Source of the DNA: a virus
Lineage: Duplodnaviria; Heunggongvirae; Uroviricota; Caudoviricetes
IMG/VR virus record: IMGVR_UViG_3300028048_000043
Direction: 5' to 3' (one strand)
Length of the DNA stretch: 64,000 nt
The position numbers and the translations under genes are program-made. Positions 6,028 to 61,094 of the stretch are shown piece by piece; position 1 is the first letter of the stretch, and every line of letters begins with the position of its first letter. The notes under the pieces were generated by a model. That model worked only from the letters and a program-made list of their open reading frames with translations. It ran no database searches and was not told the origin of the DNA.

Positions 6028-6067
6028 ATGCATAATAAATATCTAATAAAATAAAACGCAAAAAAAT

Positions 6068-8848: not shown

Positions 8849-9100
8849 ATGCTTTTTAAATTAAAACTTATAATCCAAGGATGGTTTAATTGGATTCTTG
8901 ATAAAGTGTCTGACATTAAATATAAAGAGTATTTTGATGCCAGATATGAGATTTGTAAATGCTGTGAGCATAATAAGTTTGGAATCTGTGATTGTTGCGG
9001 ATGTGTGCTTAAAGCAAAAACAAAAGCAGAAGAATCCGAATGTCCGGTTGGAAAATGGAAAACAATAAAGGAAACGTTAGATGAAAAAGTTAAAGCTTAA
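8849..9100 (+). CDS. Cys-rich small protein (putative Zn-binding)
   Basis: CKCCEHNKFGICDCCGC...ECPVGKW. Confidence 0.45.
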   Translation: MLFKLKLIIQGWFNWILDKVSDIKYKEYFDARYEICKCCEHNKFGICDCCGCVLKAKTKAEESECPVGKWKTIKETLDEKVKA

Positions 9101-14330: not shown

Positions 14331-14370
14331 TTTGTTTTGATATTTGATTTTTTTATTCTATCTTTGCAAT

Positions 14371-16170: not shown

Positions 16171-16623
16171 ATGGAAAATTTAGAAAATAAAATACAAGAA
16201 AATCTTGTAAAGGCTATGAAGGCTAAAAACGAAATCGAAGTATCAGCCCTTCGTTCAGTTAAAGCCGCTATTCAGAACGAGAAGGTTAATGGCGCATATC
16301 ACGAACTCACATACAACGAAATCATAGGCGTTATTCAAAAGCTCAGCAAGCAGCGCCAAGAAGCAGCTGAGATTTATACGTCTGCCGGGCGTACTGAACT
16401 TGCGGAAAAAGAGCTTTCAGAAAAGAAAATACTTGACGAATATCTTCCAAAGATGCTTCCGGAATACGAACTAAGAAAAGTAATCAGCGAGACCATATCT
16501 GGACTTAATATAACAGAGATGAAAGGAATGGGTCTTGTCATCAAAACACTAAAAGAAAGGTATCCAAATCAGTTCGATGGATCTGTTGCATCTCGAATTG
16601 TTCTCGAGATTCTATCAAAATAA
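16171..16623 (+). CDS. GatB/YqeY-domain protein
   Basis: N-terminal NLVKAMKAKNEIEVSALRSVKAAIQN matches YqeY family pattern. Confidence 0.6.
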   Translation: MENLENKIQENLVKAMKAKNEIEVSALRSVKAAIQNEKVNGAYHELTYNEIIGVIQKLSKQRQEAAEIYTSAGRTELAEKELSEKKILDEYLPKMLPEYELRKVISETISGLNITEMKGMGLVIKTLKERYPNQFDGSVASRIVLEILSK

Positions 16624-16643
16624 TACATTCGTTCGAATATAAA

Positions 16644-17309
16644 ATGGAAGAATCTGTTAAAAATACATCCGATGTGATGCAATTTAGGGAGAATTATTTC
16701 CTTGATTTGAATTCTGTTCTTATTAAGTTCAGAAAAGAACACGGGATGAAAGACGCAAAGGAGCTTATACCTTATCTTAGACGAATGCTCCATTGGTACG
16801 AAAACATGGGTCATATTGTTCTTGATGATAGCATTGAGAAACCATCAACGTCAAACGATTCTTTAAAGAAGAGTCCTGAAGGAAAACTGATAACTTGTGG
16901 TGTTATCATCAAGGATGTCAATGACAAAATTCTTGCTTGTGTTCCAACAGGCTCGTCTTATTATTTTGATATACCGAAAGGGTGCGCCAATAAAGATGAA
17001 GACGATTTGGATGCAGCTATAAGGGAATGCCGCGAAGAAACCGGTCTTCGTTTGGATTATTTTAGAAATGAAATCGAAGATCTAGGCGTTTACAAATATC
17101 TCAAACATAAAGATATTCATTTATTCAGGTTAAAACTTCCGTTTGTTGCCTTAGATACTTTTGTACATACTCTTAAATGTACATCTTATTTTATGGATAA
17201 AGATGGAATTGAAAAACCTGAAGTTTCTGGTTATAGGGTTGTTGATCCAAAGACATGTGAGAACTTTAACACATCTATGACAGAACTAATTAGAAAATTC
17301 GCAATTTAA
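16644..17309 (+). CDS. Nudix hydrolase
   Basis: Nudix box GCANKDEDDLDAAIRECREETGL (REx2EExGU). Confidence 0.65.
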   Translation: MEESVKNTSDVMQFRENYFLDLNSVLIKFRKEHGMKDAKELIPYLRRMLHWYENMGHIVLDDSIEKPSTSNDSLKKSPEGKLITCGVIIKDVNDKILACVPTGSSYYFDIPKGCANKDEDDLDAAIRECREETGLRLDYFRNEIEDLGVYKYLKHKDIHLFRLKLPFVALDTFVHTLKCTSYFMDKDGIEKPEVSGYRVVDPKTCENFNTSMTELIRKFAI

Positions 17310-17789: not shown

Positions 17790-18887
17790 ATGAACTATCA
17801 AAATGTTGGTGTCGTCAGCTTCGGAGTCAAGCTGCCGATTCTAAAGGAGGGTGATGATTTGGTAAGCGCAGTTGTTGAATCTGTGATCTCATCATGTAAT
17901 TCAATTCATGATAAGGATGTGATCGGCATTACAGAATCTATTGTTGCCCGCGTCGAGGGAAACTATGTTACTGTTGATGAGATTGCTGACTATGTAAAGA
18001 AACTTTACGGAGAACATGCAAAGATAGCTGTGTGTGCTCCAATATATTCAAGAAACAGATTTTCAATGATTCTTAAAGGAATAGCCCGTGGGGTTGATGA
18101 AATCGTTATGTTTGCCCCAGAATATGACGAGGTCGGAAATCCTTTCGGCGTGAATCCGTTTACTGGATGCGACATTGAAAAATATTATGGAGATATCTGT
18201 GAAGCTGAGAATTGTAAATTTTCTGTTGCAGACGGGCTTACCGAATTTTATAGCAAATTCGGAGTCGATGAGGACATGAAAGTTCTTAATTGTGGTCTTC
18301 ATATTGATAAAGAGAAGTATAATCTTTTTAAATCAATGGCTGATTCCTCATTCTATTATACTCTTGAGGATATTTGTAAAGAAAAATGTGAGTATGGACT
18401 CCTCGGCTCAAACAAGGCTACAGAAGAAAAACTCAAGCTGTTTCCAAGTAAGGCATTCGCTCAAAAGGTTTGTGAAGACGTTAAGCGAGAAATTTCAGTT
18501 AAAACTGGAGCAAACGTAATAGTTTGCGTGTACGGTGACGGTTGTTTCCATGATCCGGTTGCGGGAATATGGGAGTTTGCCGACCCTGTAACAATGCCAG
18601 CGTTTACTGACGAAGACATCATAATGTCTACTCCAAATGAGATCAAAATTAAATATTTTGCTGATGAAAAATTTAAGGATCTCAGCGGAGAAGAGCTGTC
18701 TGATGCAATCAGAGCAGAAATAAAAACAAAGAAAGAAAATCTTGTTGGAGAGATGACATCTGAAGGGACAACACCGCGTCTTAGAAGGGATCTTCTTGCT
18801 TCGCTCATGGACTTAACATCTGGATCAGGAGATAGAGGAACGCCTGTTGTTGTCGTTAAAGGTTATTTTGTAGATTACTCTTCTTAA
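17790..18887 (+). CDS. hypothetical protein, possible CofE-like (F420-0:gamma-glutamyl ligase fold)
   Basis: N-terminal VKLPILKEGDDLVSAV ... IGITESIVARVEGN resembles CofE family opening motif; unverified. Confidence 0.4.
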   Translation: MNYQNVGVVSFGVKLPILKEGDDLVSAVVESVISSCNSIHDKDVIGITESIVARVEGNYVTVDEIADYVKKLYGEHAKIAVCAPIYSRNRFSMILKGIARGVDEIVMFAPEYDEVGNPFGVNPFTGCDIEKYYGDICEAENCKFSVADGLTEFYSKFGVDEDMKVLNCGLHIDKEKYNLFKSMADSSFYYTLEDICKEKCEYGLLGSNKATEEKLKLFPSKAFAQKVCEDVKREISVKTGANVIVCVYGDGCFHDPVAGIWEFADPVTMPAFTDEDIIMSTPNEIKIKYFADEKFKDLSGEELSDAIRAEIKTKKENLVGEMTSEGTTPRLRRDLLASLMDLTSGSGDRGTPVVVVKGYFVDYSS

Positions 18888-18897
18888 TTCTATATTA

Positions 18898-19518
18898 ATG
18901 GAAACGTTAGAAGAATATAAACCAATTGGTTCCGACCCTATTAAAACATATGGTTTCAGGTTTGGTATGTACAGATACCAGGTGGAACACTTTGATCATA
19001 ATCACAGCGGAGAGGAATTATCAAAAGATGACAGTCATTTAAGAATTCTTAAAAGTAAGTCTTATTGGGATTCTATATATGGTACCAGGATCTACAGGTT
19101 TGATGATAGTGATGTGTGGGGACCAGCTATCAATACTGCACTATATCTTGATAAACTCATTGAACAGGATGAACTTAAGCAGATGATTCTTGATGATTCG
19201 ATTGATTGGAAGTTTGAAGATGCTTATGATTTCAAGGATAGGTTCATTACAGGAAAGTTTGACTATATATTAAGTAATCTCTTCCCAAAAGAGAAAGAAG
19301 ACGTGAAACTTCCTTATCCAGAATGTATTTCTCCTTATAATAAGTGTCCAATCTGTGGTGGCGAACTTGATGAATCAATCCTGGAAATGGAGAACGCTGT
19401 TGATGTGTTCAACTCACATGTCGGAACAAATTACTTTGGGGAACCAGATGGATGGTGGCATGAAGTACACAGATGTCCACATTGTGATAAGTTGTTTTTT
19501 ATAGAGGAAAGCTGTTAA
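18898..19518 (+). CDS. hypothetical protein with C-terminal Zn-ribbon
   Basis: CPICGGELDE ... HRCPHCDKLFF. Confidence 0.45.
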   Translation: METLEEYKPIGSDPIKTYGFRFGMYRYQVEHFDHNHSGEELSKDDSHLRILKSKSYWDSIYGTRIYRFDDSDVWGPAINTALYLDKLIEQDELKQMILDDSIDWKFEDAYDFKDRFITGKFDYILSNLFPKEKEDVKLPYPECISPYNKCPICGGELDESILEMENAVDVFNSHVGTNYFGEPDGWWHEVHRCPHCDKLFFIEESC

Positions 19519-19523
19519 GAAAT

Positions 19524-19555
19524 AAAGGGCGGTTATTTACCGTCCTTTATTTCTT
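19524..19555. terminator. hairpin terminator between convergent genes
   Basis: AAAGGGCGG ttattta CCGTCCTTT followed by T-run. Confidence 0.55.
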
Positions 19556-25467: not shown

Positions 25468-25505
25468 TTAAAAAGTTTCTGAATCTTTGGATTTTAGAAA
25501 CTTTT

Positions 25506-25520
25506 TTTCTATATTTGCGT
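25506..25520 (+). promoter_or_regulatory. TAnnTTTG element
   Basis: TCTATATTTGCG 8 nt before ATG 25525. Confidence 0.4.
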
Positions 25521-30532: not shown

Positions 30533-30548
30533 TGCAAATATATCGATT
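30533..30548 (-). promoter_or_regulatory. TAnnTTTG element (minus strand)
   Basis: rc CAAATCGATATATTTGCAAT, 5 nt upstream of ATG 30530. Confidence 0.45.
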
Positions 30549-30566
30549 TGTTTTTATTTTTCCAAA

Positions 30567-31397: not shown

Positions 31398-32588
31398 TTA
31401 CTTGGAATACTTGTCTGACAAGTCAAGAAGGAATTTGAGTCCCATTGCATCCATCGCTGTGGCACCCGAAGAACCGTTTCCTCCACCGCCCCAGATAATC
31501 TTAGGAAGCTCAACATTGGAGAATGCCTCTGCAACACCAACCTTGGTCTTGTATTCCCATTCTGCCCTTTCCTGAGGAGTCAGACCTGCTGCCACCTTTG
31601 CGCGGTTGGCTGCTGCCTCTGCTTCGCCCTCGGCAATAATCCTCTTCTTATCAAACTCTGCCTTCTCTGCTGCAAGACGGGCAACTTCGCGTTCCTGTTC
31701 AGCCTTTGTGACCTCTGTTGCCTTCACCTTCTCCTGTTCCCACTTGGCCTTTGCTGCTGCTGCCTTACCTTCAGCCTCTGCCTTGATAGCATCCTGCTGC
31801 GCAGCCAGTGCTTCTGCCTTCTTGGTCTGGATGGACATATTAGCCTGCTGCTGGGTCTGGATCTGCTGGTTCACCTTGTCATCATAAGTGATTTCAGTGA
31901 TGGATACCTGGTCAATAATAACACCATAATTGGTGAATGGTGAACTTTCTGAACGGGCATATCCATTGGGAGAGTGTTCATCTGCAACAAGAGATGCGAC
32001 CTTTACCTTCTTACTTTCTCCAGTGAAAGAGTCAATGACATCATCTTCACGGACAGTAGTCTTATATACACCATTAGTGAGCTGGTCGGTGATATAGGCA
32101 ACCATATCATTCTTCTTCTCTGCATAAGATTCAAATGCTGACATCAGAGGACCGGATGCATAGATAACCTTCACAACATTCTGTGCAACCAGGTCATTCA
32201 TCAACCTATCCATTCCATTGTATGCGGTCTGGATGAGTTTCAGGTGAGCAACATCAGTAGGGAGTACGACACGAAGGGATCCATAGATGTAACCAACAGA
32301 TGCATCATTGAAAACAACCTTGATGGGAGTACCATGGGAATTGCCTTCCACATCCTTACCACCAAACCAGAACTGCTGGGTCTTGTAGTACTCGGTCTTC
32401 TTACCGAACCACTGCCACTGGAAACCAGGTTCTGTCCAGTATGCCATTTTTCCAGTGAAAGGATACTGGTTGACCACAATGTTCTCATTCTTCACATCCT
32501 CACCGATGCTTCCCATCAGACAGAGAACGATTACTGCGAATACGCCGACGATTGCGGCGACTACTTTGTTTTTTGTTACGTTAATCAT
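31398..32588 (-). CDS. SPFH/band-7 (flotillin/YqiK-like) membrane protein
   Basis: N-terminal TM helix (VVAAIVGVFAVIVLCLMGSIG), central SPFH-like region, long Ala/Glu/Lys coiled-coil (AEAEGKAAAAKAKWEQEK...EAEAAANRAK); GC about 50% vs about 35% background. Confidence 0.75.
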   Translation of the reverse strand: MINVTKNKVVAAIVGVFAVIVLCLMGSIGEDVKNENIVVNQYPFTGKMAYWTEPGFQWQWFGKKTEYYKTQQFWFGGKDVEGNSHGTPIKVVFNDASVGYIYGSLRVVLPTDVAHLKLIQTAYNGMDRLMNDLVAQNVVKVIYASGPLMSAFESYAEKKNDMVAYITDQLTNGVYKTTVREDDVIDSFTGESKKVKVASLVADEHSPNGYARSESSPFTNYGVIIDQVSITEITYDDKVNQQIQTQQQANMSIQTKKAEALAAQQDAIKAEAEGKAAAAKAKWEQEKVKATEVTKAEQEREVARLAAEKAEFDKKRIIAEGEAEAAANRAKVAAGLTPQERAEWEYKTKVGVAEAFSNVELPKIIWGGGGNGSSGATAMDAMGLKFLLDLSDKYSK

Positions 32589-32778: not shown

Positions 32779-32792
32779 TGCAAATATAGGAA
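32779..32792 (-). promoter_or_regulatory. TAnnTTTG element (minus strand) for the peptide-SPFH operon
   Basis: rc CCTATATTTGCAATCG, about 27 nt upstream of ATG 32754. Confidence 0.4.
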
Positions 32793-32812
32793 CTAATTTC
32801 TATATTTCCAAA

Positions 32813-35900: not shown

Positions 35901-36734
35901 TCAAAATTTGAACGCTTCCTTCATAAACCTTTCTCGATTTTCATCAAGAGTTAAATCAAATGCAGGAATAACTGTAAATTTCGATCGAGTGAAAGTTATA
36001 GGTGCATTAGACTGTGGAATAAGTCTACTCTCTGTTGTTTCTTTCTTATATACGAATCGACCGAACCTATACTGATCGGCGAACGCACACCAATCTACAC
36101 CAGATTTTGCTTTACATAGTTCAACTTGTTCATCTGTATTTCTACTCATAAGATCCTTAGGAGAAAGATATGTCTGAGCAGTCTGCTGCTTAGAGTTCCT
36201 GATGCAGTCGATTTGGCGGTACAGGAACCAAGCATACACGTCGTTTTTATTTGGAACGACCCAGACTTTACAGTCGAATTGGGCTAGTTTCATTTTATTG
36301 ATTTCGTCATACACTTCCGCAAACGTAACATCTACATCTCCGCTATCAACAAACTTGTTTGAAAGTTTATTCAGTATGAATTGTCTGTTGAATTCGCTGG
36401 TTGCTAACGAAGCTAAAATAGACTGAAGTTTGCACAATCTTCCACCAAATGGAGTGTCGGTTTCCTGTGTATCATAATCTGTTATGAGAAGACTTATCTC
36501 GTCGCTCTGCGTATATGCAAATTTAACTCCCTGAACGTTATTGCACAGGAATTTTGCCGTTTTGTTCATCATATCGATGAAATCATCATCGAACGGTTTT
36601 TTGAAATGATTCTTCACGAGCGTACTGAAGTTCTTTCCGTCAAGCATAACAAGAATGTTACTGTTCGGGAGAATCCTGTAATCAGTAAGATCTCTATAAT
36701 AATTACACTTTTCTTTGAGGTTTTTGAAATTCAT
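35901..36734 (-). CDS. Thg1-like protein (tRNA-His guanylyltransferase family 3'-5' nucleotidyltransferase)
   Basis: ILVMLDGKNFSTLVKNHFKKPFDDDF matches Thg1 VVVRLDGRNFHRF..KP.D; FAYTQSDEISLL matches metal-binding IAYGQSDEYSFV; KLQSILASLATSEF matches KFMTHVASQFASSY. Confidence 0.65.
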   Translation of the reverse strand: MNFKNLKEKCNYYRDLTDYRILPNSNILVMLDGKNFSTLVKNHFKKPFDDDFIDMMNKTAKFLCNNVQGVKFAYTQSDEISLLITDYDTQETDTPFGGRLCKLQSILASLATSEFNRQFILNKLSNKFVDSGDVDVTFAEVYDEINKMKLAQFDCKVWVVPNKNDVYAWFLYRQIDCIRNSKQQTAQTYLSPKDLMSRNTDEQVELCKAKSGVDWCAFADQYRFGRFVYKKETTESRLIPQSNAPITFTRSKFTVIPAFDLTLDENRERFMKEAFKF

Positions 36735-37596: not shown

Positions 37597-37612
37597 TGTG
37601 CAAATATATCGA
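37597..37612 (-). promoter_or_regulatory. TAnnTTTG element (minus strand)
   Basis: rc TCGATATATTTGCACAAAATAAAAACAATATAATATG preceding ATG 37578. Confidence 0.45.
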
Positions 37613-37618
37613 TTATTT

Positions 37619-37858
37619 TTAAAATTTCCAAAGAAAACTAAAATTATTTTCAGATGTCCATCGTTTAAGTATGACTTCTATTGTGTGCATTGATAGTCCG
37701 GTCTTCTTCTTTAACGATTTAAACATATCAGTTGTTGGTGATGTTAGATGGTTTATTTCTATGTAGGAGAGAAAGTTATATATCAGATCGTCTATTTTTA
37801 GTTCGTCAGGTATAATTGTGAGAGTGCCGCGAATTTTATCTTTGCTTATTTTGTACAT
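37619..37858 (-). CDS. small protein translationally coupled to radical SAM gene
   Basis: 79 aa; TAATATG junction with rSAM stop; possible HTH (TGLSMHTIEVILKRW). Confidence 0.4.
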   Translation of the reverse strand: MYKISKDKIRGTLTIIPDELKIDDLIYNFLSYIEINHLTSPTTDMFKSLKKKTGLSMHTIEVILKRWTSENNFSFLWKF

Positions 37859-37859
37859 A

Positions 37860-38708
37860 TTAGTCTGTTCTTACAAGAAGTTTTCTATCTTTATTGTTTT
37901 TAAACATCATAGTTTGATAACATTTTGCACAATTAGGTATAAATGCGTTATAGAACTTCATGTTAAATTCCTTGAATCTCTTGTCGAATCCGCCATCAAG
38001 ATAATCAGATATGTTTGCATATTGAAGCACTCCCATATCACATTTGTATATGTCACCATCCTCATCAATAAGGAATGTATATAAAGACTCTGGTTTCTGA
38101 CAGTAACACCCAAAGAAACTATAAATCCCGTTAGATGAAAACGCGCTTCTTCCAATCGGTACTATTCCACTTTCACTTAAATAGTTTATATCAGGAATGT
38201 TATATTTTGCACCCATCTTTTCAAGAAGTTCTCCAGCTTTATCCACATTTTTATTTGTGTGCCATTTATCCCTTGAAATCGATATGTTTATTTTATCTCC
38301 ACAGTTTATGACGAGTCGCTGAAGTTTTGCTTGAACAGAAATATTGTTAGCCCAGTCTCCATTGCTGACAATTCTTGCGTGTTTACAGGAATCTATAAGA
38401 ATTGTAAATATTTCATACCAGTCAGGGTTACAGAAAAATTCTCCTCCCATAAGGTTAATACTTACGACGTCGTTGTTTTTGATGAATTGAGCAATCTCCT
38501 TTGCCCTGTCTATGCTCATCATTATTTTGCTTTCTGGAGACGAATTGAAGCAGCAATGGGAACATTTTTGTGTACATTTATTCGTTATCCTTATTGTCCA
38601 ATGAAGAAACCGCATGCACTCGTTTGCTAATTTACAAGTGTTGCAGTTACAGTCGTGTTTTCCTTTACAAGTTTCCTCTACACAAATGTTGCAAGGAGGT
38701 TTTCTCAT
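37860..38708 (-). CDS. radical SAM enzyme with N-terminal Cys-rich extension and C-terminal twitch/SPASM-like motif (paralog 1)
   Basis: CTQKCSHC (Cx3Cx2C), NLMGGEFF (GGE motif), C-x14-G-x4-C then CAKC at C-terminus; N-terminal CNICVEETCKGKHDCNCNTCKLANEC. Confidence 0.7.
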   Translation of the reverse strand: MRKPPCNICVEETCKGKHDCNCNTCKLANECMRFLHWTIRITNKCTQKCSHCCFNSSPESKIMMSIDRAKEIAQFIKNNDVVSINLMGGEFFCNPDWYEIFTILIDSCKHARIVSNGDWANNISVQAKLQRLVINCGDKINISISRDKWHTNKNVDKAGELLEKMGAKYNIPDINYLSESGIVPIGRSAFSSNGIYSFFGCYCQKPESLYTFLIDEDGDIYKCDMGVLQYANISDYLDGGFDKRFKEFNMKFYNAFIPNCAKCYQTMMFKNNKDRKLLVRTD

Positions 38709-44454: not shown

Positions 44455-44470
44455 GATGCAAATATATGGA
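44455..44470 (-). promoter_or_regulatory. TAnnTTTG element (minus strand)
   Basis: rc CCATATATTTGCATCG about 30 nt upstream of ATG 44430. Confidence 0.45.
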
Positions 44471-44494
44471 ATTGTTTTTTAATTTCCAAATTTA

Positions 44495-45294: not shown

Positions 45295-46239
45295 TTATTC
45301 CTCTTCTTTTTCTCGAACCTGAACTATTACATCTGTATCGTTTTTGAATTTATCAAAAAGTTTTTCCTCGATTCCTGGAGTTTTTACATATGATGTGAAT
45401 GCACTTGTATATACCGTTCCTTCAACGGTTATTCCTTTTTCAGCTTGCTCCTGCTTTCCGGCGATTTTTCCAAGATTGTAATAATGCTTTGCGATTGCGG
45501 AATGTGTTCGGTCATCAAGAATCTCATACATATTATTAAAAGGAATATGCGATCCATATCTTTCTATTTCACGCTCAAGACTGTCCGATTCATTATATGT
45601 TTTAAGATCTGTTTTGAAATGATAACCAGATTCATCAACAACTGCGTCTCCATGAACTTCCGGATAGAAAGTTGTTTTTGGTTCTCTGTATTTTTTATCA
45701 AAGTTCCATTTCTTTAGATAATCAAATTTTTGTTCTTTTGTTTCTGATTTTTCTAATCCTTCACCAGCCGTTCTAAGATAATCTTCAAGTCGTTCTGCTG
45801 CCTGCTGAGGAGTATGACCATCCCATTTATTCGCGACAACTTTTTCAGGAATATTGAAAAGATTCCAATACTTCATTTCATAATGGTTGGAAATCTGTCC
45901 CGTTGGAAGTTCAGCCATAACGATAAACCATCCGCCTCCGAAACATTCTTCGCCGTCGTTGTGTCTCTTACTTTTATGTACGTCATATTCAACTTCCCAT
46001 GATCCGTCAGCCCAACTGTCATAATTTGCAAGGGAATTAAAGAATGCGGCATTATACAGCATCCTATAATTGTAAAGCTCATTAAACGTATGATATCCGT
46101 CCGATATTTCTCCTTTATCGGTCGGTTCGTTTTCCATTTTTTCTGCAAAAGAAATCAGTTTATCAAGACTAGGAGTAGCTATTGGTTGCCACTTCTTCAA
46201 TTCTTCAACCTTCTCTTTCAGTTTTTCAAGATCTATCAT
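45295..46239 (-). CDS. hypothetical protein
   Basis: 314-aa ORF. Confidence 0.45.
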   Translation of the reverse strand: MIDLEKLKEKVEELKKWQPIATPSLDKLISFAEKMENEPTDKGEISDGYHTFNELYNYRMLYNAAFFNSLANYDSWADGSWEVEYDVHKSKRHNDGEECFGGGWFIVMAELPTGQISNHYEMKYWNLFNIPEKVVANKWDGHTPQQAAERLEDYLRTAGEGLEKSETKEQKFDYLKKWNFDKKYREPKTTFYPEVHGDAVVDESGYHFKTDLKTYNESDSLEREIERYGSHIPFNNMYEILDDRTHSAIAKHYYNLGKIAGKQEQAEKGITVEGTVYTSAFTSYVKTPGIEEKLFDKFKNDTDVIVQVREKEEE

Positions 46240-46683: not shown

Positions 46684-47031
46684 TTAACTATATATAAATC
46701 CTGTTAAATCAAACATCTTTCTTTTTTTGTCTTCGGTCGGTTCAAACTTGTCTTTTATGACCCAACCAATATCATCATAACCCCCCGTCGCATAATTGGG
46801 AAGTGTCGTATATCTCACCCATCCGAGACTCTCTAAAGCAGCTGTAAGTGAACCATGTTCCCTGTCAAGTTTATCTATTTCATCAATGTCCAAACCAAGT
46901 TTTTCCTCCATAATTTTCCAGGCAGCTCTAGCATGATCCCATTTGCCTGTACAATTAATAACTTCTCCATATGGACTTAACCAACAATCTCTTTCCATAA
47001 TTAAGATTCCTTCTTGTATAAAATTTCCCAA
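46684..47031 (-). CDS. hypothetical protein
   Basis: 115-aa ORF. Confidence 0.4.
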   Translation of the reverse strand: MGNFIQEGILIMERDCWLSPYGEVINCTGKWDHARAAWKIMEEKLGLDIDEIDKLDREHGSLTAALESLGWVRYTTLPNYATGGYDDIGWVIKDKFEPTEDKKRKMFDLTGFIYS

Positions 47032-47261
47032 GGCGTTTGTTCATCCCAGGCGAAATCATAATCATAATGAAATCTCTTGTTGATGGTGAACACATCACCG
47101 TTTGCACATTTATGTCTTTCAACAAGCATATAATCTTCCCTTGGTTCATACTCATATGCTTGAATATCTGGATTATAATCCTTTACTTTATACTTGGCAA
47201 GGCAGACCATACATCCACCTTCATTTGGAGTTTCTTTATTTAAAAAATCTATCAGTTTCAT
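47001..47261 (-). CDS. hypothetical protein
   Basis: 86-aa ORF. Confidence 0.35.
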   Translation of the reverse strand: MKLIDFLNKETPNEGGCMVCLAKYKVKDYNPDIQAYEYEPREDYMLVERHKCANGDVFTINKRFHYDYDFAWDEQTPWEILYKKES

Positions 47262-47300
47262 AACACTACAAAGATAATGGATTTTTTTGACAATTCCAAA

Positions 47301-47582
47301 TTATCCTGTATAAAAATCTGTGTAATAACTCCAAACTTCCTGGTTTGTTTTCTTGTCTATGATCCTGTGATCCAGAGTATATGAATTACTCTCATATGCA
47401 TACCTGTCATTCTCCCCGGTTCTCCACCAATGTGAATCATTGGGATATGGTTGATACGGTTTCTCAATGACTGCCAGAGAGTCACAAACCTTTATCATTT
47501 TTTCATAAGACAATCTTTTCATATTAAAATAACTTTTTACAATTCCAGTCACTAATCTTTTTGGATATAAGTTCCAAAACAA
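47301..47582 (-). CDS. hypothetical protein
   Basis: 93-aa ORF. Confidence 0.35.
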   Translation of the reverse strand: MFWNLYPKRLVTGIVKSYFNMKRLSYEKMIKVCDSLAVIEKPYQPYPNDSHWWRTGENDRYAYESNSYTLDHRIIDKKTNQEVWSYYTDFYTG

Positions 47583-47733
47583 TTATACCACACAAATAAA
47601 CCACTAATAAAATTGTAAATATTCCAATATGAACAATTATATCCTGTTGTATACTATATCTCGGAAGGATAAAATATATTGCAAGTCCATAGATGATAAT
47701 ACCTATAAAAAACAATATGTCTCTTCTAATCAT
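47524..47733 (-). CDS. small membrane protein immediately downstream of rSAM paralog 2
   Basis: 69 aa, 2 TM helices, overlaps rSAM stop. Confidence 0.4.
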   Translation of the reverse strand: MIRRDILFFIGIIIYGLAIYFILPRYSIQQDIIVHIGIFTILLVVYLCGIIVLELISKKISDWNCKKLF

Positions 47734-48565
47734 AATCTACTATAAATTCAGGTTTCTGTGATGATATAAAGTTATAACAGGATTGACAAGATGAGATGAA
47801 TACAGAATAGAATTTACTGTTTGTTTCTTTGAACTTCTGTCTGAATCCTCCTTCAAGATATTCATCAACATGTGCATAACACAGGACACCGAATGAACAC
47901 TTGAAAATATTTCCTTTTTCATCAATAAGGAAAGAATACTTATTTTTAGGATTCTGACAGTAACATCCCATCATATCATAAAGTCCACTGATGTACTTAC
48001 CATTTGCCCTACCAACAGGGACAATAGACTGATCGGTTGTCTGATCTTCTGTTGCCACTTTGACAATCGCCCCTATATCTTCAAGGAATGCCTTTGCAGC
48101 ATCCACATTCTTGTTTGTATGCCACTTGTCCTTTGATATACAGAAGTAAATCTGCTTATTGAACAGTGATACCAATGTCATCAGCTGGGTCTTTACTTTC
48201 ATATTGTTCACCCAGTCACCATTTGTCACCAGTCTGGCATATTTTACAGATGAGATGAGGGCACTATATATCTCAAACCAGTCGGGATTGCAGAAGAACT
48301 CTCCACCCATAAGGTTGATACTCTCTATGTCATTACTTTTCAAGAACTTTGCAATTTCTTTTGCTTTCTCCACAGTCATCATAATGTTTGACTTTGGAGA
48401 AGACATAAAGCAACAGTGACCGCACTCCTGGGTACATCTGTTGGTGATTCTGATAGTTGCATGAAGTTTTCTGTAACACTTATCTTTCAGTTGACAAGCA
48501 TCACAATGACAATTATGAGCGCCTTTGCAGGTTTCTTCTAAACATATATCACAAGGACTTGACAT
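47726..48565 (-). CDS. radical SAM enzyme with N-terminal Cys-rich extension and C-terminal twitch/SPASM-like motif (paralog 2)
   Basis: CTQECGHC, NLMGGEFF, GCYCQ...C-x-G-x4-C, about 50% identity to 37860-38708 across full length. Confidence 0.7.
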   Translation of the reverse strand: MSSPCDICLEETCKGAHNCHCDACQLKDKCYRKLHATIRITNRCTQECGHCCFMSSPKSNIMMTVEKAKEIAKFLKSNDIESINLMGGEFFCNPDWFEIYSALISSVKYARLVTNGDWVNNMKVKTQLMTLVSLFNKQIYFCISKDKWHTNKNVDAAKAFLEDIGAIVKVATEDQTTDQSIVPVGRANGKYISGLYDMMGCYCQNPKNKYSFLIDEKGNIFKCSFGVLCYAHVDEYLEGGFRQKFKETNSKFYSVFISSCQSCYNFISSQKPEFIVDYD

Positions 48566-48583
48566 TTCTTTTTACGTTTTACG

Positions 48584-48596
48584 ATACAAAGATAAG
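48584..48596 (-). promoter_or_regulatory. TAnnTTTG element (minus strand)
   Basis: rc CTTATCTTTGTATCG about 20 nt upstream of ATG 48565. Confidence 0.4.
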
Positions 48597-48621
48597 GTTT
48601 TTTCTTGAGATATCCAAATTT

Positions 48622-48843
48622 TTATAAGTCTTCCAACCAAAGTTTTTGATTTCCTTTGACAAACTCACATTTTTCGATTTCAACGTTCCTGTCTTCTGAA
48701 TAAAGACTAACAAGCATATCCATCACCTTGTCTCTTGAAAAATCAGCATCCATAATGATGTCTTTCTTTACATTACAATCTTCTGGACCATCATAATCAC
48801 TCCAACCATGATACAGTTCAATGCGCCAGATATTATATTTCAT
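48622..48843 (-). CDS. hypothetical protein
   Basis: 73-aa ORF. Confidence 0.35.
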   Translation of the reverse strand: MKYNIWRIELYHGWSDYDGPEDCNVKKDIIMDADFSRDKVMDMLVSLYSEDRNVEIEKCEFVKGNQKLWLEDL

Positions 48844-49093
48844 TCCTTTCCTCCTTTATTCTGCTCATTGTTTTTAATAATTGGTTGTAATAATTGGATT
48901 CCAGATTCAACTGTGCCTTATAACCATCCAATAAACCATATATGGATTCTGGTATGGAAACACTATCATCTTCAAGAATTTTGATAGCATCAGTTAGCAC
49001 TGATACTTTTCTTCGAAATTCTTCCTGAAGACACTTGCTTTCAGACAAACAGTCCTCAATTTCAACTAAATCTATAAATGAATTTTCTGACAT
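48833..49093 (-). CDS. hypothetical protein
   Basis: 86-aa ORF. Confidence 0.35.
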   Translation of the reverse strand: MSENSFIDLVEIEDCLSESKCLQEEFRRKVSVLTDAIKILEDDSVSIPESIYGLLDGYKAQLNLESNYYNQLLKTMSRIKEERNEI

Positions 49094-49229
49094 ATATTAA
49101 TCAATAAGGTCAACATCAATTATTTCCATATCATCCCTGTGGTTTGCATCAATTAGTGTATCAAATGGATAATCGCATTCGTAATCATCAGGGACATTGA
49201 TGACAACTTTCAATTCAATACATTTCATA

Positions 49230-49568
49230 TTATTTCAACATATTTCTCAATTCAATTTCATTCTCAAGTATAGATGATAGTTTATTGAGCTCTTCTTTTT
49301 TCTCATTGATACTTTTATCAAGATTTTCAATTATCCAAGTTATTTTCTTGTGCTTGTATGTATCTTCATTCTCATTGGGGTTTGCCCAGAAATATACACC
49401 ATGATAAGATTTATTACTATATACTTGTAATTCAAGAGTGCCATCATCATAAGAATATACTTCTGCGCGATCTAAATCATAATCATCGGCAGTGATGGTT
49501 TCTGTAGTTAAGTTATCCTTAACAAAGTTTTTTGTATATTCATACTGTTCAGAATGTCTTTGTTCCAA
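49230..49568 (-). CDS. hypothetical protein
   Basis: 112-aa ORF. Confidence 0.4.
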   Translation of the reverse strand: MEQRHSEQYEYTKNFVKDNLTTETITADDYDLDRAEVYSYDDGTLELQVYSNKSYHGVYFWANPNENEDTYKHKKITWIIENLDKSINEKKEELNKLSSILENEIELRNMLK

Positions 49569-49620
49569 GACATATTTCTGTTGTAAAGCTCAACAAAATT
49601 TTTGACTTCTTCTTTCATAT

Positions 49621-49878
49621 CTATTCATTGTTATTAATCAATCGAACTGTTACTTCAACCTCAATTGGACCATCATTAAACTTAAGTTCTGGAAGAAGAT
49701 TTTTTAAATCATATGAACCCAACTTTCCATAGCTATCATCATATCTACAAGTTAAATCTTCCATATGACAATATATTTTTTCTTTCTTTGGTTTTCTTGT
49801 ATATAAGAATGTTCTTGGATAGAATTCATCGTTTATATTGTCTCTTGCTACCCACCCTTTAAATGTTACACTATTCAT
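49621..49878 (-). CDS. hypothetical protein
   Basis: 85-aa ORF. Confidence 0.35.
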   Translation of the reverse strand: MNSVTFKGWVARDNINDEFYPRTFLYTRKPKKEKIYCHMEDLTCRYDDSYGKLGSYDLKNLLPELKFNDGPIEVEVTVRLINNNE

Positions 49879-49880
49879 AC

Positions 49881-50558
49881 CTATTCAAGTTTTTTACATT
49901 CTTCTTCAGTATACATAGAATGGAGTTTTTCAATCCACCACTTGGTCTTGATTTTAACAGAAGGTCTCCTCTGTCCCTTGAGTAAAGTTGATCTCTTGAA
50001 CACAACACCTTCCTTTACTTTTGAGTTCCAGCAATCGGGTTGAGTCCAGTCATTTCCCTGGATCTTTGAAATGATGTCTGCGTCAAGTACACCTGAATAA
50101 ATCAAATCAGGCATCTCAATCCCAGAATTCCTGAAACACATTTCATAGTTCTTTGGTTCAATATAACCTTTCTTCTTCAGGAATACATCAATGAGTGCAA
50201 GATGCATTTCATCTCCATCCTGGTGTTTACCGGCGAAAGAATTCCAACCATACCACTCAGATACAAATGTCACTTCATCAACACCAGTAAAGACATCTCC
50301 CTTTCCGGAATAGTCTTTTACAATCTTTGCAATTATTTCAGGATAATTGGAATTTTTGAACCACTTGACCACCTGTCCAAACTGTTCAGAATTCTCATCA
50401 ACAGTGACTGTCCTGGATCCAAATGGTCCCCAGGTTTTCTTTCTGCAATTATAGGATGCAACAAAATTCTGGCCATCAAGTTTATTATACCCGACAACCA
50501 TTTCACCTTTCAAAGAACCATCATCCTGGATTCTTGGTATGGAATCATAATGTTTCAT
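49881..50558 (-). CDS. minimal Rnl2-like RNA/DNA ligase nucleotidyltransferase domain
   Basis: motif I GYNKLDGQNF (KxDGxN, cf. T4 Rnl2 KIHGTNF), motif IV EGVVFK, motif V KIKTKWW. Confidence 0.55.
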   Translation of the reverse strand: MKHYDSIPRIQDDGSLKGEMVVGYNKLDGQNFVASYNCRKKTWGPFGSRTVTVDENSEQFGQVVKWFKNSNYPEIIAKIVKDYSGKGDVFTGVDEVTFVSEWYGWNSFAGKHQDGDEMHLALIDVFLKKKGYIEPKNYEMCFRNSGIEMPDLIYSGVLDADIISKIQGNDWTQPDCWNSKVKEGVVFKRSTLLKGQRRPSVKIKTKWWIEKLHSMYTEEECKKLE

Positions 50559-50569
50559 TGCTTTTAAAC

Positions 50570-51175
50570 TTAATCAATATATCCTTTGTCTTCATACCAT
50601 TCCTTGTGTAAATACTTCTCAAGAGTCCAGTCATTGTCATAATGCGGATTCTGAACCATCTTGTATGTACACTGGTCTTTACTGAATAATCTTTCAACAG
50701 GGTAACTGATTGATGTAACCAATTCTCCATCAATGAGATTGTGGAGAATCATCAGCATCTTTTCAGTTGTTTCTGTGAATTTTCCATATAAATCTTTAAA
50801 GACACCCTGGCTGTTCCAGTTTTCCCTGAGTTTCCACCAGATACCCCTGAAATCGTGCATTGCATAATTTATGAGGGCAATGTTTGGGTTGGCATAGATT
50901 TCTGCACCATCCTGATAATGGAAATATCCATCAGGTGAATCAGACGTCTTGTAGTGCAGCATCCTATCCTTCACATATCTGTAATACCTGTAAACCATGT
51001 TATAACCATGATCATCCAAGTCATATTCTTCAAGAGCATTATTAACTTCCTCAAACAATTTGGCATATTCATCCAGAAGATACAACTGTGGATTCTTCCT
51101 GAACTCATGATTCTTTATTTTATCATGCAGGACTTTACATTTATCCAGGTCTTCTTTTAAGATTTCTTTGTACAT
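50570..51175 (-). CDS. hypothetical protein
   Basis: 201-aa ORF. Confidence 0.45.
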   Translation of the reverse strand: MYKEILKEDLDKCKVLHDKIKNHEFRKNPQLYLLDEYAKLFEEVNNALEEYDLDDHGYNMVYRYYRYVKDRMLHYKTSDSPDGYFHYQDGAEIYANPNIALINYAMHDFRGIWWKLRENWNSQGVFKDLYGKFTETTEKMLMILHNLIDGELVTSISYPVERLFSKDQCTYKMVQNPHYDNDWTLEKYLHKEWYEDKGYID

Positions 51176-51186
51176 ATGAATTCAAT

Positions 51187-51840
51187 TTACATACACTCTA
51201 CATAGAGTTCATTTTCCTTGTTTTCATCATTGACCGATGCAAGGTCCATATACCCATCTGATGCACAGATCCATTCTCCACACTTACAACTAGCTGCCAA
51301 GTCATCCAGACCAAACCAGAACCCATTCCAATCAAGGGGAAGGTCTCTTTTATTCTTCTCAAGGAACTCTGAAATAAGTCCAAAAAGAAAATCCTGACAA
51401 CCAACAAATTCCTCCCGTTTGGGTTCATCTTCAAGGTTCTCAACCATTTGAGTATCAGGGATATAATACTTAACATTGAAAGATGGGATATACAAATCTT
51501 CAACCCCATCAACAACACGTTTTACATTGATGGAGAAAGACCAGAGATTTTCATAATCCACATTCTCCATGCACCAATCAACAAGTGCCTGACCAAGCAT
51601 TGAGAAGAGAATACACCATTCGCTGTTCTTCACATTGGTGTGATTTTTGAACAAGGACGAGTCATTCTTTTCATACTCTGAAAGGAATTTAACCGTTTCG
51701 ATGTAGTCTCCTTTCAAAGACAACTTGTCATATTCGAATCGTGTCGGTTTTCTCCACCACTCTTCATCTTGCATCGATAACCACTGTTCGTGGTGATCTT
51801 TTGCCAAATCATAATATTCTTTAAATGTTCTCATATTCAC
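51187..51840 (-). CDS. hypothetical protein
   Basis: 217-aa ORF. Confidence 0.45.
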   Translation of the reverse strand: MNMRTFKEYYDLAKDHHEQWLSMQDEEWWRKPTRFEYDKLSLKGDYIETVKFLSEYEKNDSSLFKNHTNVKNSEWCILFSMLGQALVDWCMENVDYENLWSFSINVKRVVDGVEDLYIPSFNVKYYIPDTQMVENLEDEPKREEFVGCQDFLFGLISEFLEKNKRDLPLDWNGFWFGLDDLAASCKCGEWICASDGYMDLASVNDENKENELYVECM

Positions 51841-53556: not shown

Positions 53557-53572
53557 ATTGCAAATGTACGGA
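53557..53572 (-). promoter_or_regulatory. TAnnTTTG element (minus strand)
   Basis: rc CCGTACATTTGCAATTGG about 27 nt upstream of ATG 53534. Confidence 0.45.
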
Positions 53573-53636
53573 ATTATTTCCAAACTTCCAAACACACAGA
53601 TAAATATTTTATAAATTTTACAGGTTTACCAAAGCG

Positions 53637-60810: not shown

Positions 60811-61053
60811 TCATTTCTCAAACCATCTTGGCTCATCAAACCCCATTTCTATATAGACAGAGTCCTCTCCACATTTGTAGTCTGTGGCAACCATTTCTAT
60901 CTTCGCGTTGGCAACCCTGCTTCCCTGAAGCATACACACATGCACATCACAGTCGTGCCCAATGTCATCCCTGATTTCTTGGAGGCGTTCAATAAGCCCG
61001 TCAAGCGTCATTAGTTTATTAGTCGCCATATTCACATCTTGTTTACGATGCAA
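60811..61053 (-). CDS. hypothetical protein
   Basis: 80-aa ORF. Confidence 0.35.
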   Translation of the reverse strand: MHRKQDVNMATNKLMTLDGLIERLQEIRDDIGHDCDVHVCMLQGSRVANAKIEMVATDYKCGEDSVYIEMGFDEPRWFEK

Positions 61054-61094
61054 AGATAAGAAATATAAATCAAAAATCCAAATTTATTTCAATC

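Follow-up and report, generated by a model that had tools for sequence, protein, structure and literature searches.

The enzymes EpeE and SkfB modify small peptides that are encoded next door, EpeX and SkfA, respectively. The function of EpeE is known, as it acts as a radical SAM peptide epimerase (PMC13012085). In large phages, radical SAM genes are common cargo, yet they are almost wholly unexplained. The Campylobacter phages CP220 and CPt10 carry 11 and 12 radical SAM genes, respectively, partly located in exchangeable modules (PMC2853527). Our search of the literature on radical SAM enzymes in huge or jumbo phages or megaphages, and on YydG in combination with phage, returned nothing specific to the family described here.

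The window analyzed in this study is a whole stretch of 64,000 nucleotides from one phage contig, and it contains two radical SAM genes, rSAM-A and rSAM-B (copies A and B; Table 1). We consider it fairly probable that copy B is an intact, resident and expressed-looking member of a jumbo-phage family, that copy A comes from another sub-lineage of the same family, and that both act by the chemistry proposed below. The family delineated here is compact, restricted to jumbo phages and clearly related to EpeE, lacks the catalytic residues of EpeE and carries an added Cys-rich module.

Table 1. Position of the two radical SAM genes, the domains of copy B and the surrounding elements in the window
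Feature	Position	Strand	Description
Thg1-like tRNA-His guanylyltransferase family gene	35901..36734	-	1.1 kb downstream of copy A; Pfam Thg1 5e-28
rSAM-A	37860..38708	-	282 aa; second family member, different sub-lineage
Next promoter-like site, TTTGGAATTGTCAAAAAAATCCATTATCTTTG	47269..47300	-	Same class as the site of copy B; downstream border of the B / 2-TM / p73 unit
p73	47301..47522	-	73-aa soluble protein, third gene of the unit; ATG at 47522, not the 93-aa TTG ORF
2-TM protein	47524..47733	-	69 aa; two predicted TM helices (two hydrophobic segments)
rSAM-B	47726..48565	-	279 aa, ATG to TAG; radical SAM/twitch ORF
Twitch auxiliary-cluster domain (predicted)	47729..47980	-	B codons 196-279; C203-x14-G218-x4-C223 and C260-x2-C263
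AdoMet radical core	47981..48466	-	B codons 34-195; invariant columns, Pfam
N-terminal 7-Cys module	48467..48565	-	B codons 1-33; C5, C8, C13, C19, C21, C24, C30
Bipartite promoter-like site, TTTGGATATCTCAAGAAAAAACCTTATCTTTG	48587..48618	-	-33 TTTG, 20-nt spacer, -7 TAnnTTTG
Upstream 73-aa ORF	48622..48843	-	Beyond the promoter, outside the unit
RNA ligase gene	49881..50558	-	1.3 kb upstream of copy B; Pfam RNA_ligase 2.4e-8

Two intact copies in one phage genome

A sequence-only reading of the window had described copy B as a second, diverged and co-linear copy of rSAM-A. The two genes share one strand of one genome at a distance of ~9 kb, and BLASTP aligned their proteins co-linearly over residues 4-264 with a single 1-residue gap (146/261 identical, 56%; 76% positives; E 7e-116); the description holds, with its estimate of roughly 50% identity being slightly low. 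At the DNA level, 495 of 837 positions are identical (59%), runs of identity reach at most 14 nt and the synonymous sites are saturated (dS). All of the motifs named in that reading, i.e., the N-terminal Cys pattern, the CX3CX2C motif CTQxCxHC, GGEFFCNPDW and GCYCQ...C...CxxC, are present in both proteins. When both proteins were used as tblastn queries, only A and B were recovered in the window; a weak match at 36021-36668 was rejected as a third paralog, as it belongs to the Thg1-like gene and not to a radical SAM gene.

Both proteins carry the CX3CX2C and GGE motifs and exceed the gathering threshold of PF04055 (Radical_SAM; 42.1 bits for B and 41.8 for A vs 29.5), which places them by sequence in the radical SAM superfamily. 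Among the columns with a conservation of 90% or more over 101 homologs, B retains 76/76 and A 75/76, and the catalytic and cluster residues do not differ between the copies. Comparison of B with its orthologs gave a dN/dS of 0.11-0.15, and its AF2 model reached a pLDDT of 94 and a pTM of 0.92. Both copies look intact, functional and under selection, in agreement with the selected role that had been suggested for them.

The possibility that copy B arose through faulty assembly, is a recent duplicate of near-identical sequence or represents a pseudogene in decay had virtually no probability in our assessment and is already refuted. Public gene callers shorten many family members, including A (P0121, 219 aa), which could mimic decay, but the 63 codons that the callers omit hold CX3CX2C together with seven Cys that are conserved at 98-100% in the family, and the full-length ORFs are intact. 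The DNA identity, the short longest run and the saturated dS argue against an artefact and, as the earlier reading had also held, against a recent tandem copy. In addition, the same contig was recovered independently in ENA.

In public databases, mis-calling of family members is routine. The gene calls start at an internal Met, by which CX3CX2C is lost, and most of them have no Pfam match.

The standard genetic code suffices for the window, which is 92% coding and uses TAA, TGA and TAG as stops; a Lak-like recoding of TAG was rejected on these grounds. The rSAM-B and 2-TM genes lie in different frames, so that read-through of the TAG would give no fusion.

Domain architecture

The protein of copy B can be divided into three parts (Table 1). 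Each Cys of the N-terminal 7-Cys module is 98-100% conserved among 103 sequences, the module of B was modelled with a pLDDT of 82-86, and it presumably binds metal, either Zn or Fe-S. The hhalign match to YydG begins only at residue 36, and remoter relatives match from profile position ~35 onward. In the AdoMet radical core, CX3CX2C corresponds to C44/48/51 in B (C44-x3-C48-x2-C51) and C45/49/52 in A and is invariant in the 103 sequences; the AdoMet-binding GGE motif (G87-G88-E89) is likewise invariant, and the core of B further contains C52, NGDW and SxSKDxWH. When hmmsearch was run against the PDB, YydG was matched at 4e-19 over residues 35-155.

The C-terminal part fits the pattern CX9-15GX4C...CX2C, with Cys conserved at 99-100%, and hhalign paired C203/C223/C260/C263 with C206/C222/C289/C292 of EpeE. 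SkfB, EpeE, BtrN and SpeY are among the fold matches of B. Based on these residues, the domain is predicted to be of the twitch type (truncated SPASM), in which the four Cys should supply all ligands of one auxiliary [4Fe-4S] cluster. A full SPASM domain, with two auxiliary clusters and a seven-Cys motif including CX2CX5CX3C, was not found, as the hairpin is followed by CX2C only and the C-terminal part contains no further conserved Cys.

Distribution of the family and origin of the two copies

Judged from the database searches, the family is compact and confined to jumbo-phage contigs. It was found on phage contigs only, with 65 clusters at 50% identity when E<=1e-30 was required; its GTDB occurrences are limited to two 'MAGs' that each consist of a single contig (363-371 kb), and a tblastn search of GenBank revealed one huge phage carrying it, LR756500.1. 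A near-identity DNA match to the region was not found among 50,697 phage records.

Copy B has orthologs at 95, 84, 83, 82 and 77% identity (overall range 72-95%). Due to these close orthologs, the conserved synteny and the dN/dS values given above, we interpret B as the vertically inherited, resident ortholog, kept by purifying selection. Copy A is embedded differently: its start overlaps the stop of the upstream gene by 1 nt, it lies in a long multi-gene unit without a promoter site of the B class, and the neighbors of A and B have no mutual similarity, as the different flanks noted earlier had indicated. Its best non-self match is at 63-64%, with none above 64% among 5.8 billion clusters.

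The earlier reading attributed the two copies to duplication with divergence, which would make them in-lineage duplicates that were neofunctionalized toward two different substrates. Their presence in one genome, on one strand and 9 kb apart, and the retention of the family-conserved residues in both intact copies are consistent with such an origin, as are three positions of the twitch hairpin at which A departs from the family majority (N205K, S211T and F225M), which border the auxiliary-cluster Cys and, in the alignment, correspond to the D210/C223 region of EpeE. However, in neighbor-joining trees built on ~275 columns, the smallest clade containing both A and B comprised at least 20 of the 52 sequences in 198/200 bootstraps, so that A and B stand apart. 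P0048, which comes from another phage contig, has the residues K205 and M225 and the string GVLQYA in common with A, and these therefore predate any local event. Moreover, B has many close orthologs whereas A has none above 64%, the synteny of B with its closest relative spans 46991-51723 of the window and ends at 46991, short of the A region, and all of the other IMG/VR contigs (34/34) have one family copy each, with the reservation that contigs may be incomplete. We regard duplication within the lineage as improbable, and the earlier attribution is not upheld.

Because of the bootstrap result, the residues shared with P0048 and the single copy in 34 contigs, we interpret A as an ancient paralog or xenolog and not as a copy that was duplicated locally and then diverged on site. 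The neighbor-joining trees do not separate these two origins, the sister group of A having a bootstrap of only 55%. Most likely, A was acquired from another jumbo phage by recombination; less likely, it is the survivor of an ancient duplication that other lineages lost. The second copy by itself is ordinary, i.e., an additional, anciently diverged family member. This phage seems to be unusual in carrying two. A candidate second copy in another contig (L059) proved to be a radical SAM gene that belongs to an unrelated family; it lacks the N-terminal module and is 25-28% identical over 115 aa. Copy A is followed by a 79-aa ORF that matches the ORFs behind P0045 and P0049 in length and position; it is not homologous to them and was rejected as their counterpart.

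Putative promoter and small neighbors of copy B

The -33 TTTG element and the spacing of Bacteroidota sigma-A promoters were reportedly described by Bayley et al. 2000. This -33 TTTG / -7 TAnnTTTG arrangement is found ahead of B and at nine further sites of the window; TAnnTTTG itself is the Bacteroides -7 consensus (PMC4747536). The -7 element of B (TATCTTTG, 48587-48594(-)) is separated from the ATG by 21 nt. The pattern TTTG-N19-21-TAnnTTTG occurs at 10 sites in the window vs 1.7 expected, a number reached in 0/100 shuffles, and the listed sites are intergenic, on the coding strand and 5-29 nt ahead of a start codon. In comparison with the Bacteroidota class the phage sites are tighter, following TTTGGAW...TAYNTTTG with a 20-nt spacer in 9/10. 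By sequence, the site of B agrees with the Bacteroidota sigma-A pattern, and it is kept upstream of the closest ortholog (L033). The promoter element ascribed to B in the sequence-only reading is thereby borne out and extends to a full TTTG-N20-TAnnTTTG. A scan for terminators and sigma-70 promoters gave background levels, with no terminator found.

Copy B, the 2-TM protein and p73 appear to be transcribed as one unit from this promoter. The ATG of the 2-TM gene overlaps the TAG stop of rSAM-B by 8 nt (ATGATTAG). Homologs in L033 and L034 are 86-87% identical and have the identical overlap, in L035 a 39% homolog lies immediately upstream of the radical SAM gene, and the dN/dS of the 2-TM protein is 0.23-0.33. 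The p73 orthologs in L033 and L034 are also 73 aa long and 93-95% identical, with a dN/dS of 0.09-0.14. No match above threshold was obtained for p73 in Pfam or PHROGs, or for the small flanking proteins in PHROGs, Pfam and NCBIfam; the 73-aa ORF upstream of the promoter had no family match and no tblastn match in related loci.

Given this arrangement, copy B and the adjacent small proteins could form a RiPP-like cassette in which the 69-aa and/or the 73-aa protein serves as substrate or membrane anchor. The 8-nt overlap, which suggests translational coupling, is kept in L033 and L034, the L035 homolog is still adjacent on the other side of the enzyme gene, the three genes are bounded by two promoter sites, and the nearest characterized relatives act on peptides encoded alongside. 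However, the 2-TM gene is next to the radical SAM gene in only 4 of ~37 loci, all of the B sub-clade, and none lies within 10 kb of the L031 enzyme gene, the product of which is 91% identical to that of L034. The p73 gene is found in 3 loci only, the sole Cys of the 2-TM tail has no counterpart in L035, neither a protease nor an exporter is nearby, and such neighbors are missing from copy A and from most of the family. A cassette of this kind is quite unlikely in our view. The two-helix ORF overlapping the stop of B is real, but its earlier designation as a partner of the enzyme was overstated. Across the family, neither a conserved neighbor nor a precursor peptide was found, the best co-occurring family being present in 11/37 loci at variable distance.

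Possible association with tRNA genes

In six loci (L036/38/39/40/41/64), the family gene is located in the middle of an array of 16-27 same-strand tRNA genes, and in most of these a tRNA ends 26 nt ahead of the ATG of the radical SAM gene. One further locus contains 18 tRNAs within 6 kb as well as a tmRNA (L029), others have 14 (L051), 6 (L045) or 5-6 (L052/53) tRNAs nearby, and 12 nt separate the end of a tRNA from the ATG in L057. The tRNA-rich loci are scattered over the whole family tree. The commonest annotated neighbors are RNA ligase (5), AAA_33/HD, CCA-adding PolyA_pol, RlaP, SmpB, peptidyl-tRNA hydrolase and peptide deformylase. No tRNAs were found in the window, and an Rfam scan of 36-50 kb gave no match; B is situated near an RNA ligase gene and A near a Thg1-like gene (Table 1). 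Orthologs of this RNA ligase (98% and 74%) adjoin the radical SAM gene in L001/L010/L031, syntenic with the B orthologs. When large phage contigs were compared, at least 2 tRNAs within 6 kb were present at 13/39 radical SAM loci vs 1/17 DnaK control loci (Fisher p 0.026). A link of the family gene to tRNA arrays and tRNA-repair genes in several lineages is suggestive only (p ~0.03-0.08).

Based on these arrays, their spread over the tree, the recurrent RNA- and translation-related neighbors and the control comparison, it is possible, though on the unlikely side, that the family targets tRNA or the translation apparatus and not a free peptide. It would then modify a tRNA nucleoside or repair or alter tRNA, the 7-Cys module would be an RNA-binding Zn or Fe-S finger, and two copies could serve two tRNA targets. 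Sequence and fold comparisons gave no membership in the tRNA- or rRNA-modifying radical SAM families MiaB/RimO, RlmN/Cfr, QueE and TYW1. Since the significance against the DnaK control is modest, we have not made the tRNA reading our best explanation. More doubtful still is a broader version, in which the family is a new kind of enzyme of a huge-phage translation island that carries out an undescribed radical modification of tRNA or of a translation-apparatus protein, with a second sub-type recruited by this phage for a second target; it would account for the location of the gene within tRNA arrays in several deep lineages. If the association with tRNA arrays holds, the family would offer an approach to the remodelling of host translation by huge phages.

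Comparison with known radical SAM enzymes

The nearest characterized relative of the family is the peptide epimerase EpeE/YydG of Bacillus subtilis (TIGR04078; PDB 8ai1-8ai6), which hhalign matched with a probability of 99.5% (E 1e-22, 228 columns) at an identity of just 19-25%. Against the TIGR04078 HMM, B scored 57.5 and A 60.2 bits vs a cutoff of 300, whereas genuine YydG members score 316-458; by sequence, the phage family falls outside YydG/EpeE. It differs from EpeE by the extra 7-Cys N-terminal module, a shorter C-terminus and its confinement to phages. In the hhalign alignment, the H-donor Cys223 of EpeE, directly after the ligand Cys222, faces a gap in the phage family, and the position after that gap is G/S/P/A/D/N, never Cys, in 103 sequences. 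Asp210 of EpeE, which we take to be a critical residue, aligns with S211 of the phage family (Ser 71%, Thr 16%; Thr in A). By its title, 8ai6 is the structure of EpeE D210A. The Asp210 column is not invariant in the six-sequence YydG alignment either (consensus GYE).

Due to the absence of the EpeE catalytic residues, the chemistry of EpeE is not transferable to the phage family, and together with the new Cys-rich module this absence makes a different chemistry probable. We infer the chemistry and the substrate class from the known functions of the relatives and from genomic context. In A and B, SAM would be reductively cleaved at the CX3CX2C cluster and a macromolecular substrate would then have an H-atom abstracted, with electrons being conducted by the auxiliary cluster. 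As the H-donor cysteine is missing, the outcome would be oxidation or a cross-link and not epimerization. The substrate is tentatively a peptide or protein, possibly of the translation apparatus; tRNA or RNA, the main alternative, is conceivable but rather unlikely.

The genomic surroundings differ as well. Among the scanned window neighbors, no epeX-like precursor, protease or ABC transporter resembling the epeXEPAB context was found, and peptidase and ABC-transporter families are absent from the 25 commonest Pfam families in either half of a census of 210 neighbors. RiPP maturases of the SkfB/AlbA/SuiB type have their own N-terminal RRE/PqqD-like leader-binding domain and an adjoining precursor peptide, neither of which was found here; the phage N-terminus is a 33-residue Cys-rich module and not an RRE, in contrast to sactisynthases and RRE-dependent maturases. 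SuiB and AlbA contain two auxiliary clusters, whereas the phage family has cysteines for one, and the HMM scores were 46-55 bits for AlbA vs a cutoff of 850 and 15 for SkfB vs 300. BtrN and SpeY (twitch dehydrogenases), MoaA and viperin act on small molecules, and the phage family does not belong to any of them at the sequence level (NCBIfam, MoaA 23-29 bits vs 231-325 and viperin 23 vs 450).

The Campylobacter phages CP220 and CPt10 provide a precedent for several function-unassigned radical SAM genes in one large phage genome, and proteins of CP220, CP21 and CPt10 were weak fold matches in BFVD. Their enzymes belong to other families and to phages of another host phylum, whereas here two members of a single phage-restricted family occur in one phage, which makes A and B a natural pair for specificity experiments.

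Two intact, diverged copies of the radical SAM gene

The sequence-only reading described a second, diverged radical SAM (rSAM)/twitch gene co-linear with the first, and the present analysis bears this out. rSAM-B (B), an unbroken 279-codon ORF running from ATG to TAG, and rSAM-A (A), an ORF of 282 codons, encode proteins that align co-linearly over residues 4-264, with 146 of 261 positions identical (56%), one 1-residue gap and an E-value of 7e-116. Their DNA is 59% identical with a longest common run of 14 nt, and synonymous sites are saturated, leaving NG86 dS undefined. Each protein exceeds the Pfam Radical_SAM threshold (42.1 and 41.8 bits vs 29.5), tblastn of A and B across the 64-kb window detected no family copies beyond these two, and the standard code fits the window, with a coding density of 92% and 78 TAA, 20 TGA and 16 TAG stops. 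The observation is thus confirmed, and the diverged DNA and intact ORFs exclude a near-identical duplicate, an artefact and a pseudogene. Both proteins were also matched exactly on contig k141_717600 (313,587 bp) of ENA assembly ERZ27252073. By itself the second copy is an ordinary observation whose facts are correct.

For other window genes, among them those for DnaK, the ClpX-like AAA+ protein, a 5'-3' exonuclease, the CofE-like ligase, the Thg1-like protein and the RNA ligase, the best phage relatives are metagenomic huge phages (LR7565xx), with weaker matches to Prevotella Lak phages; the source of the window is a jumbo phage. Most of the remaining ~100 window ORFs had no family match.

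Positions of the genes and promoter-like sites in the window
Feature	Position	Strand	Remark
ClpX/ClpB-like AAA+ protein	565-1680	+	
DnaK	6874-8775	+	
Promoter-like site	14336-14366	+	
CofE-like F420 ligase	17790-18887	+	
Promoter-like site	25486-25517	+	
Promoter-like site	30535-30566	-	
SPFH/Band_7 protein	31398-32588	-	
Promoter-like site	32781-32812	-	
Thg1-like protein	35901-36734	-	1.1 kb from A
Promoter-like site	37601-37632	-	
rSAM-A	37860-38708	-	
Promoter-like site	44459-44490	-	
WDGH-domain protein	45295-46239	-	
Promoter-like site	47269-47300	-	
73-aa protein	47301-47522	-	
69-aa protein	47524-47733	-	
rSAM-B	47726-48565	-	
Promoter-like site	48587-48618	-	before B
RNA ligase	49881-50558	-	1.3 kb from B
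Promoter-like site	53561-53592	-	
Promoter-like site	61051-61082	-	

Promoter-like sites and the genes downstream of B

B had also been credited with a promoter element of its own, TATCTTTG, which we find to be the -7 half of a putative bipartite site, TTTGGATATCTCAAGAAAAAACCTTATCTTTG, that is also conserved ahead of the B ortholog of the related contig L033. Ten matches to TTTG-N19-21-TAnnTTTG were counted in the window vs 1.7 expected, and none of 100 shuffles reached 10; nine of the ten sites have TTTGGA and a 20-nt spacer (tight class TTTGGAW-N17-TAYNTTTG). The sites listed in the promoter scan are intergenic and on the coding strand, 5-29 nt ahead of an ATG, and the intergenic 6% of the window is 3.6-fold enriched in TAnnTTTG alone. 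The -33 element of Bacteroides promoters is TTTG. These motifs suggest a host in the Bacteroidota, and TAnnTTTG matches the -7 consensus of Bacteroides (PMC4747536). The sites could divide the small-gene region into transcription units: as the next one lies at 47269-47300, the motifs predict a promoter-delimited unit of three genes, B and those for the 69-aa and 73-aa proteins. A is one of a long series of genes and is flanked by the sites at 44459-44490 and 37601-37632; its ATG shares 1 nt with the stop codon before it.

The proposed two-helix membrane (2-TM) partner of B stood as a neighbouring gene and not as an obligate partner. The 69-aa ORF, with two hydrophobic helices and a dN/dS of 0.23-0.33, is a real gene; two contigs carry orthologs (86-87% identity) that overlap the rSAM gene by the same 8 nt, and in a third a 39% homolog immediately precedes the rSAM gene. 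The 2-TM gene was found at four of ~37 loci, all in the B sub-clade. It is present at L034 but absent within 10 kb at locus L031, and the rSAMs of these two loci are 91% identical. The 2-TM protein is therefore at most an accessory neighbour. The 73-aa protein (93-95% identity, dN/dS ~0.09-0.14) is more conserved than the enzyme, and its distribution is as restricted as that of the 69-aa protein.

Relationship of A and B

B has orthologs at 95, 84, 83, 82 and 77% identity, one such cluster having 1,160 members, and its dN/dS of 0.11-0.15 against them indicates purifying selection. Relatives of A outside its own contig did not exceed 63-64% among 5.8 billion clusters and IMG/VR. In neighbor-joining trees the whole B sub-clade excludes A, and the smallest clade with both copies held at least 20 of 52 sequences in 198 of 200 bootstraps; P0045 and P0049 formed the sister of A in 55% of replicates. 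The hairpin residues K205, M225 and "GVLQYA" of A are unusual and are common to P0048, a protein from another contig.

The closest relative (L001/L033, 84%) is syntenic over window positions 46991-51723, with the common order RNA ligase, small genes, rSAM, 2-TM gene, 73-aa gene and an 86-aa gene, and the synteny ends before the 36-47 kb region carrying A. Within this stretch, as an example of small-gene shuffling, the orthologs of 49097-49228 and 48833-49093 are separated in L001 by an inserted homolog of window gene 18898-19518 (9023-9654, matching 18893-19527). IMG/VR scans with each protein and the family profile gave 6, 19 and 34 loci, and every contig, including ~10 above 300 kb, carried one family copy. 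One 442-kb contig has an additional rSAM gene 4.6 kb downstream of its family gene (L059, 10658-11305; 215 aa, without the N-terminal Cys module), which we rejected as a family copy because it belongs to another family (25-28% identity over 115 aa).

We therefore regard B as the resident ortholog and A as an anciently diverged second member, either the relic of an old duplication or, as we favour, derived from another jumbo phage. The two substrate specificities proposed earlier are kept as a hypothesis, since no cluster ligand or conserved residue tells A from B.

Distribution and conserved features of the family

With B as query, 336 proteins were retrieved at E<=0.001; nearly all have 260-300 aa, and their contigs reach 427 kb. 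When 1.84 billion cluster representatives were searched exhaustively with the family profile, just 65 clusters emerged at E<=1e-30. Among 50,697 GenBank phage records the family is present once (LR756500.1), and its only occurrences among 185,579 GTDB species genomes are two "MAGs" that consist of one contig each (363-371 kb). These entries, CASEGV010000001.1 (370,971 bp) and JBAZIW010000001.1 (362,763 bp), are labelled Mycoplasmatota and Paceibacterota, an IMG/VR phage contig matches the latter in length, and both are probably mis-binned jumbo phages. By these searches the family is confined to phages, and it carries no functional name in any source.

In an alignment of 103 sequences, the N-terminal cysteines C5, 8, 13, 19, 21, 24 and 30 are each 98-100% conserved. 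The conserved core comprises CX3CX2C (C44/48/51) followed by C52, GGE (87-89), C92, NGDW and SxSKDxWH, and the C-terminal cysteines are C201 (80%), C203, C223, C260 and C263. Of the 76 columns conserved at 90% or more, B retains all and A 75 (exception F225M). Many public gene calls begin at a conserved internal "MM(S/T)(V/I)" and give ~217-222 aa, among them P0121 (219 aa), the call for A, and P0027, P0029-31, P0050, P0063, P0077, P0083, P0099 and P0136. Because the dropped codons are conserved, these calls are errors; they lose the 7-Cys module and CX3CX2C, which is why most of the entries have no Pfam annotation. In L064 (IMGVR_UViG_3300045988_044102, 4631-5426) the gene is in 61-aa and 210-aa pieces and lacks the 'YC' of GCYC, which points to a pseudogene or to an error of sequencing. 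In P0019, a 327-aa call from a 4.7-kb ENA contig, the N-terminal ~240 residues belong to a B-type rSAM and are joined to an SmpB domain (PF01668); this is probably a frameshift or chimeric call, and by implication the phage in question has smpB immediately after its rSAM gene.

A possible association with tRNA arrays

At six related loci (L036, L038-L041 and L064; around 6001-6800) the family gene lies amid a same-strand array of 16-27 tRNA genes, at most of them with a tRNA end 26 nt before the ATG and another tRNA soon after the stop. L029 (family gene 10001-10849) has 18 tRNAs within 6 kb and a tmRNA, L051 has 14 tRNAs, L045 six and L052/53 five to six, and in L057 a tRNA ends 12 nt ahead of the ATG. 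The tRNA-adjoining loci, with up to 27 tRNAs within 6 kb, are dispersed over the whole family tree and include several deep lineages. The L029 array, on the 388-kb contig carrying P0035, includes the tmRNA (16264-16665) and a tRNA with anticodon CTA (8944-9015; a TAG suppressor, labelled tRNA-Pyl by ARAGORN), which hints at stop-codon reassignment in that phage.

With DnaK loci on phage contigs of at least 90 kb as control, at least two tRNAs lay within 6 kb of 13 of 39 rSAM loci vs one of 17 DnaK loci (Fisher p = 0.026; 0.078 once related loci were collapsed). No tRNAs were found in the window. In a Pfam census of 210 neighbouring ORFs, RNA ligase was the commonest annotated family (five), and AAA_33/HD, CCA-adding enzyme, RlaP, SmpB, peptidyl-tRNA hydrolase and peptide deformylase also occurred. 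An N6/N4 DNA methyltransferase gene follows the rSAM gene, directly or after one small ORF, in two different sub-lineages (L031, 10928-11671; L073, 1160-1951). The association with tRNA arrays, a modest excess over the control, is suggestive but not established, and the substrate may be tRNA or belong to the translation apparatus.

Predicted fold and mechanism, and comparison with known enzymes

An AlphaFold2 model built with the family alignment (pLDDT 94, pTM 0.92) placed EpeE/YydG, a peptide epimerase of Bacillus subtilis, first in a Foldseek search of the PDB (E 4e-9), followed by SkfB, BtrN, SpeY, SuiB, MoaA and viperin; a profile search of PDB sequences gave YydG at 4e-19. The EpeE sequence was taken from the alignment of a genuine YydG-family protein and the two family profiles were compared with hhalign (probability 99.5%, E 1e-22, 228 columns), pairing phage C203/C223/C260/C263 with EpeE C206/C222/C289/C292. 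The earlier "twitch" label is upheld, as C203-x14-G218-x4-C223 fits the SPASM/twitch hairpin CX9-15GX4C and only CX2C follows it.

The sequence and predicted fold show the features expected of an AdoMet radical enzyme that has a single auxiliary-cluster site, ligated fully by Cys, plus an additional Cys-rich module. Such an enzyme would cleave SAM and then abstract a hydrogen atom, and the auxiliary cluster may serve as an electron conduit, as it does in BtrN and anSME; the outcome would be other than epimerisation. A peptide or protein is a tentative choice of substrate and tRNA or RNA a more doubtful one, the remaining probability falling to something else.

EpeE is described as carrying a single auxiliary cluster within an extended twitch domain, its Cys223 donating the H atom for epimerisation (PMC13012085). 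In the phage family, a gap lies opposite Cys223, the next residue is never Cys in the 103 sequences, and Ser/Thr occupies the position of Asp210; the phage copies score 57-60 bits with TIGR04078, whereas true members score 316-458 and the cutoff is 300. The family is therefore a relative of EpeE/YydG and not a member, and it is unlikely to epimerise in the manner of EpeE. EpeE has no counterpart of the N-terminal 7-Cys module, and the more remote relatives, which match only from profile position ~35, also lack it. Several rSAM genes in one large phage are already precedented, with 11 of unknown function in CP220 (PMC2853527), and phage rSAM/SPASM-like proteins are common in BFVD. The family is less ordinary than the second copy: it is phage-only, related to EpeE yet catalytically different, mis-annotated in public data, often within tRNA arrays, and carries an unexplained 7-Cys module.
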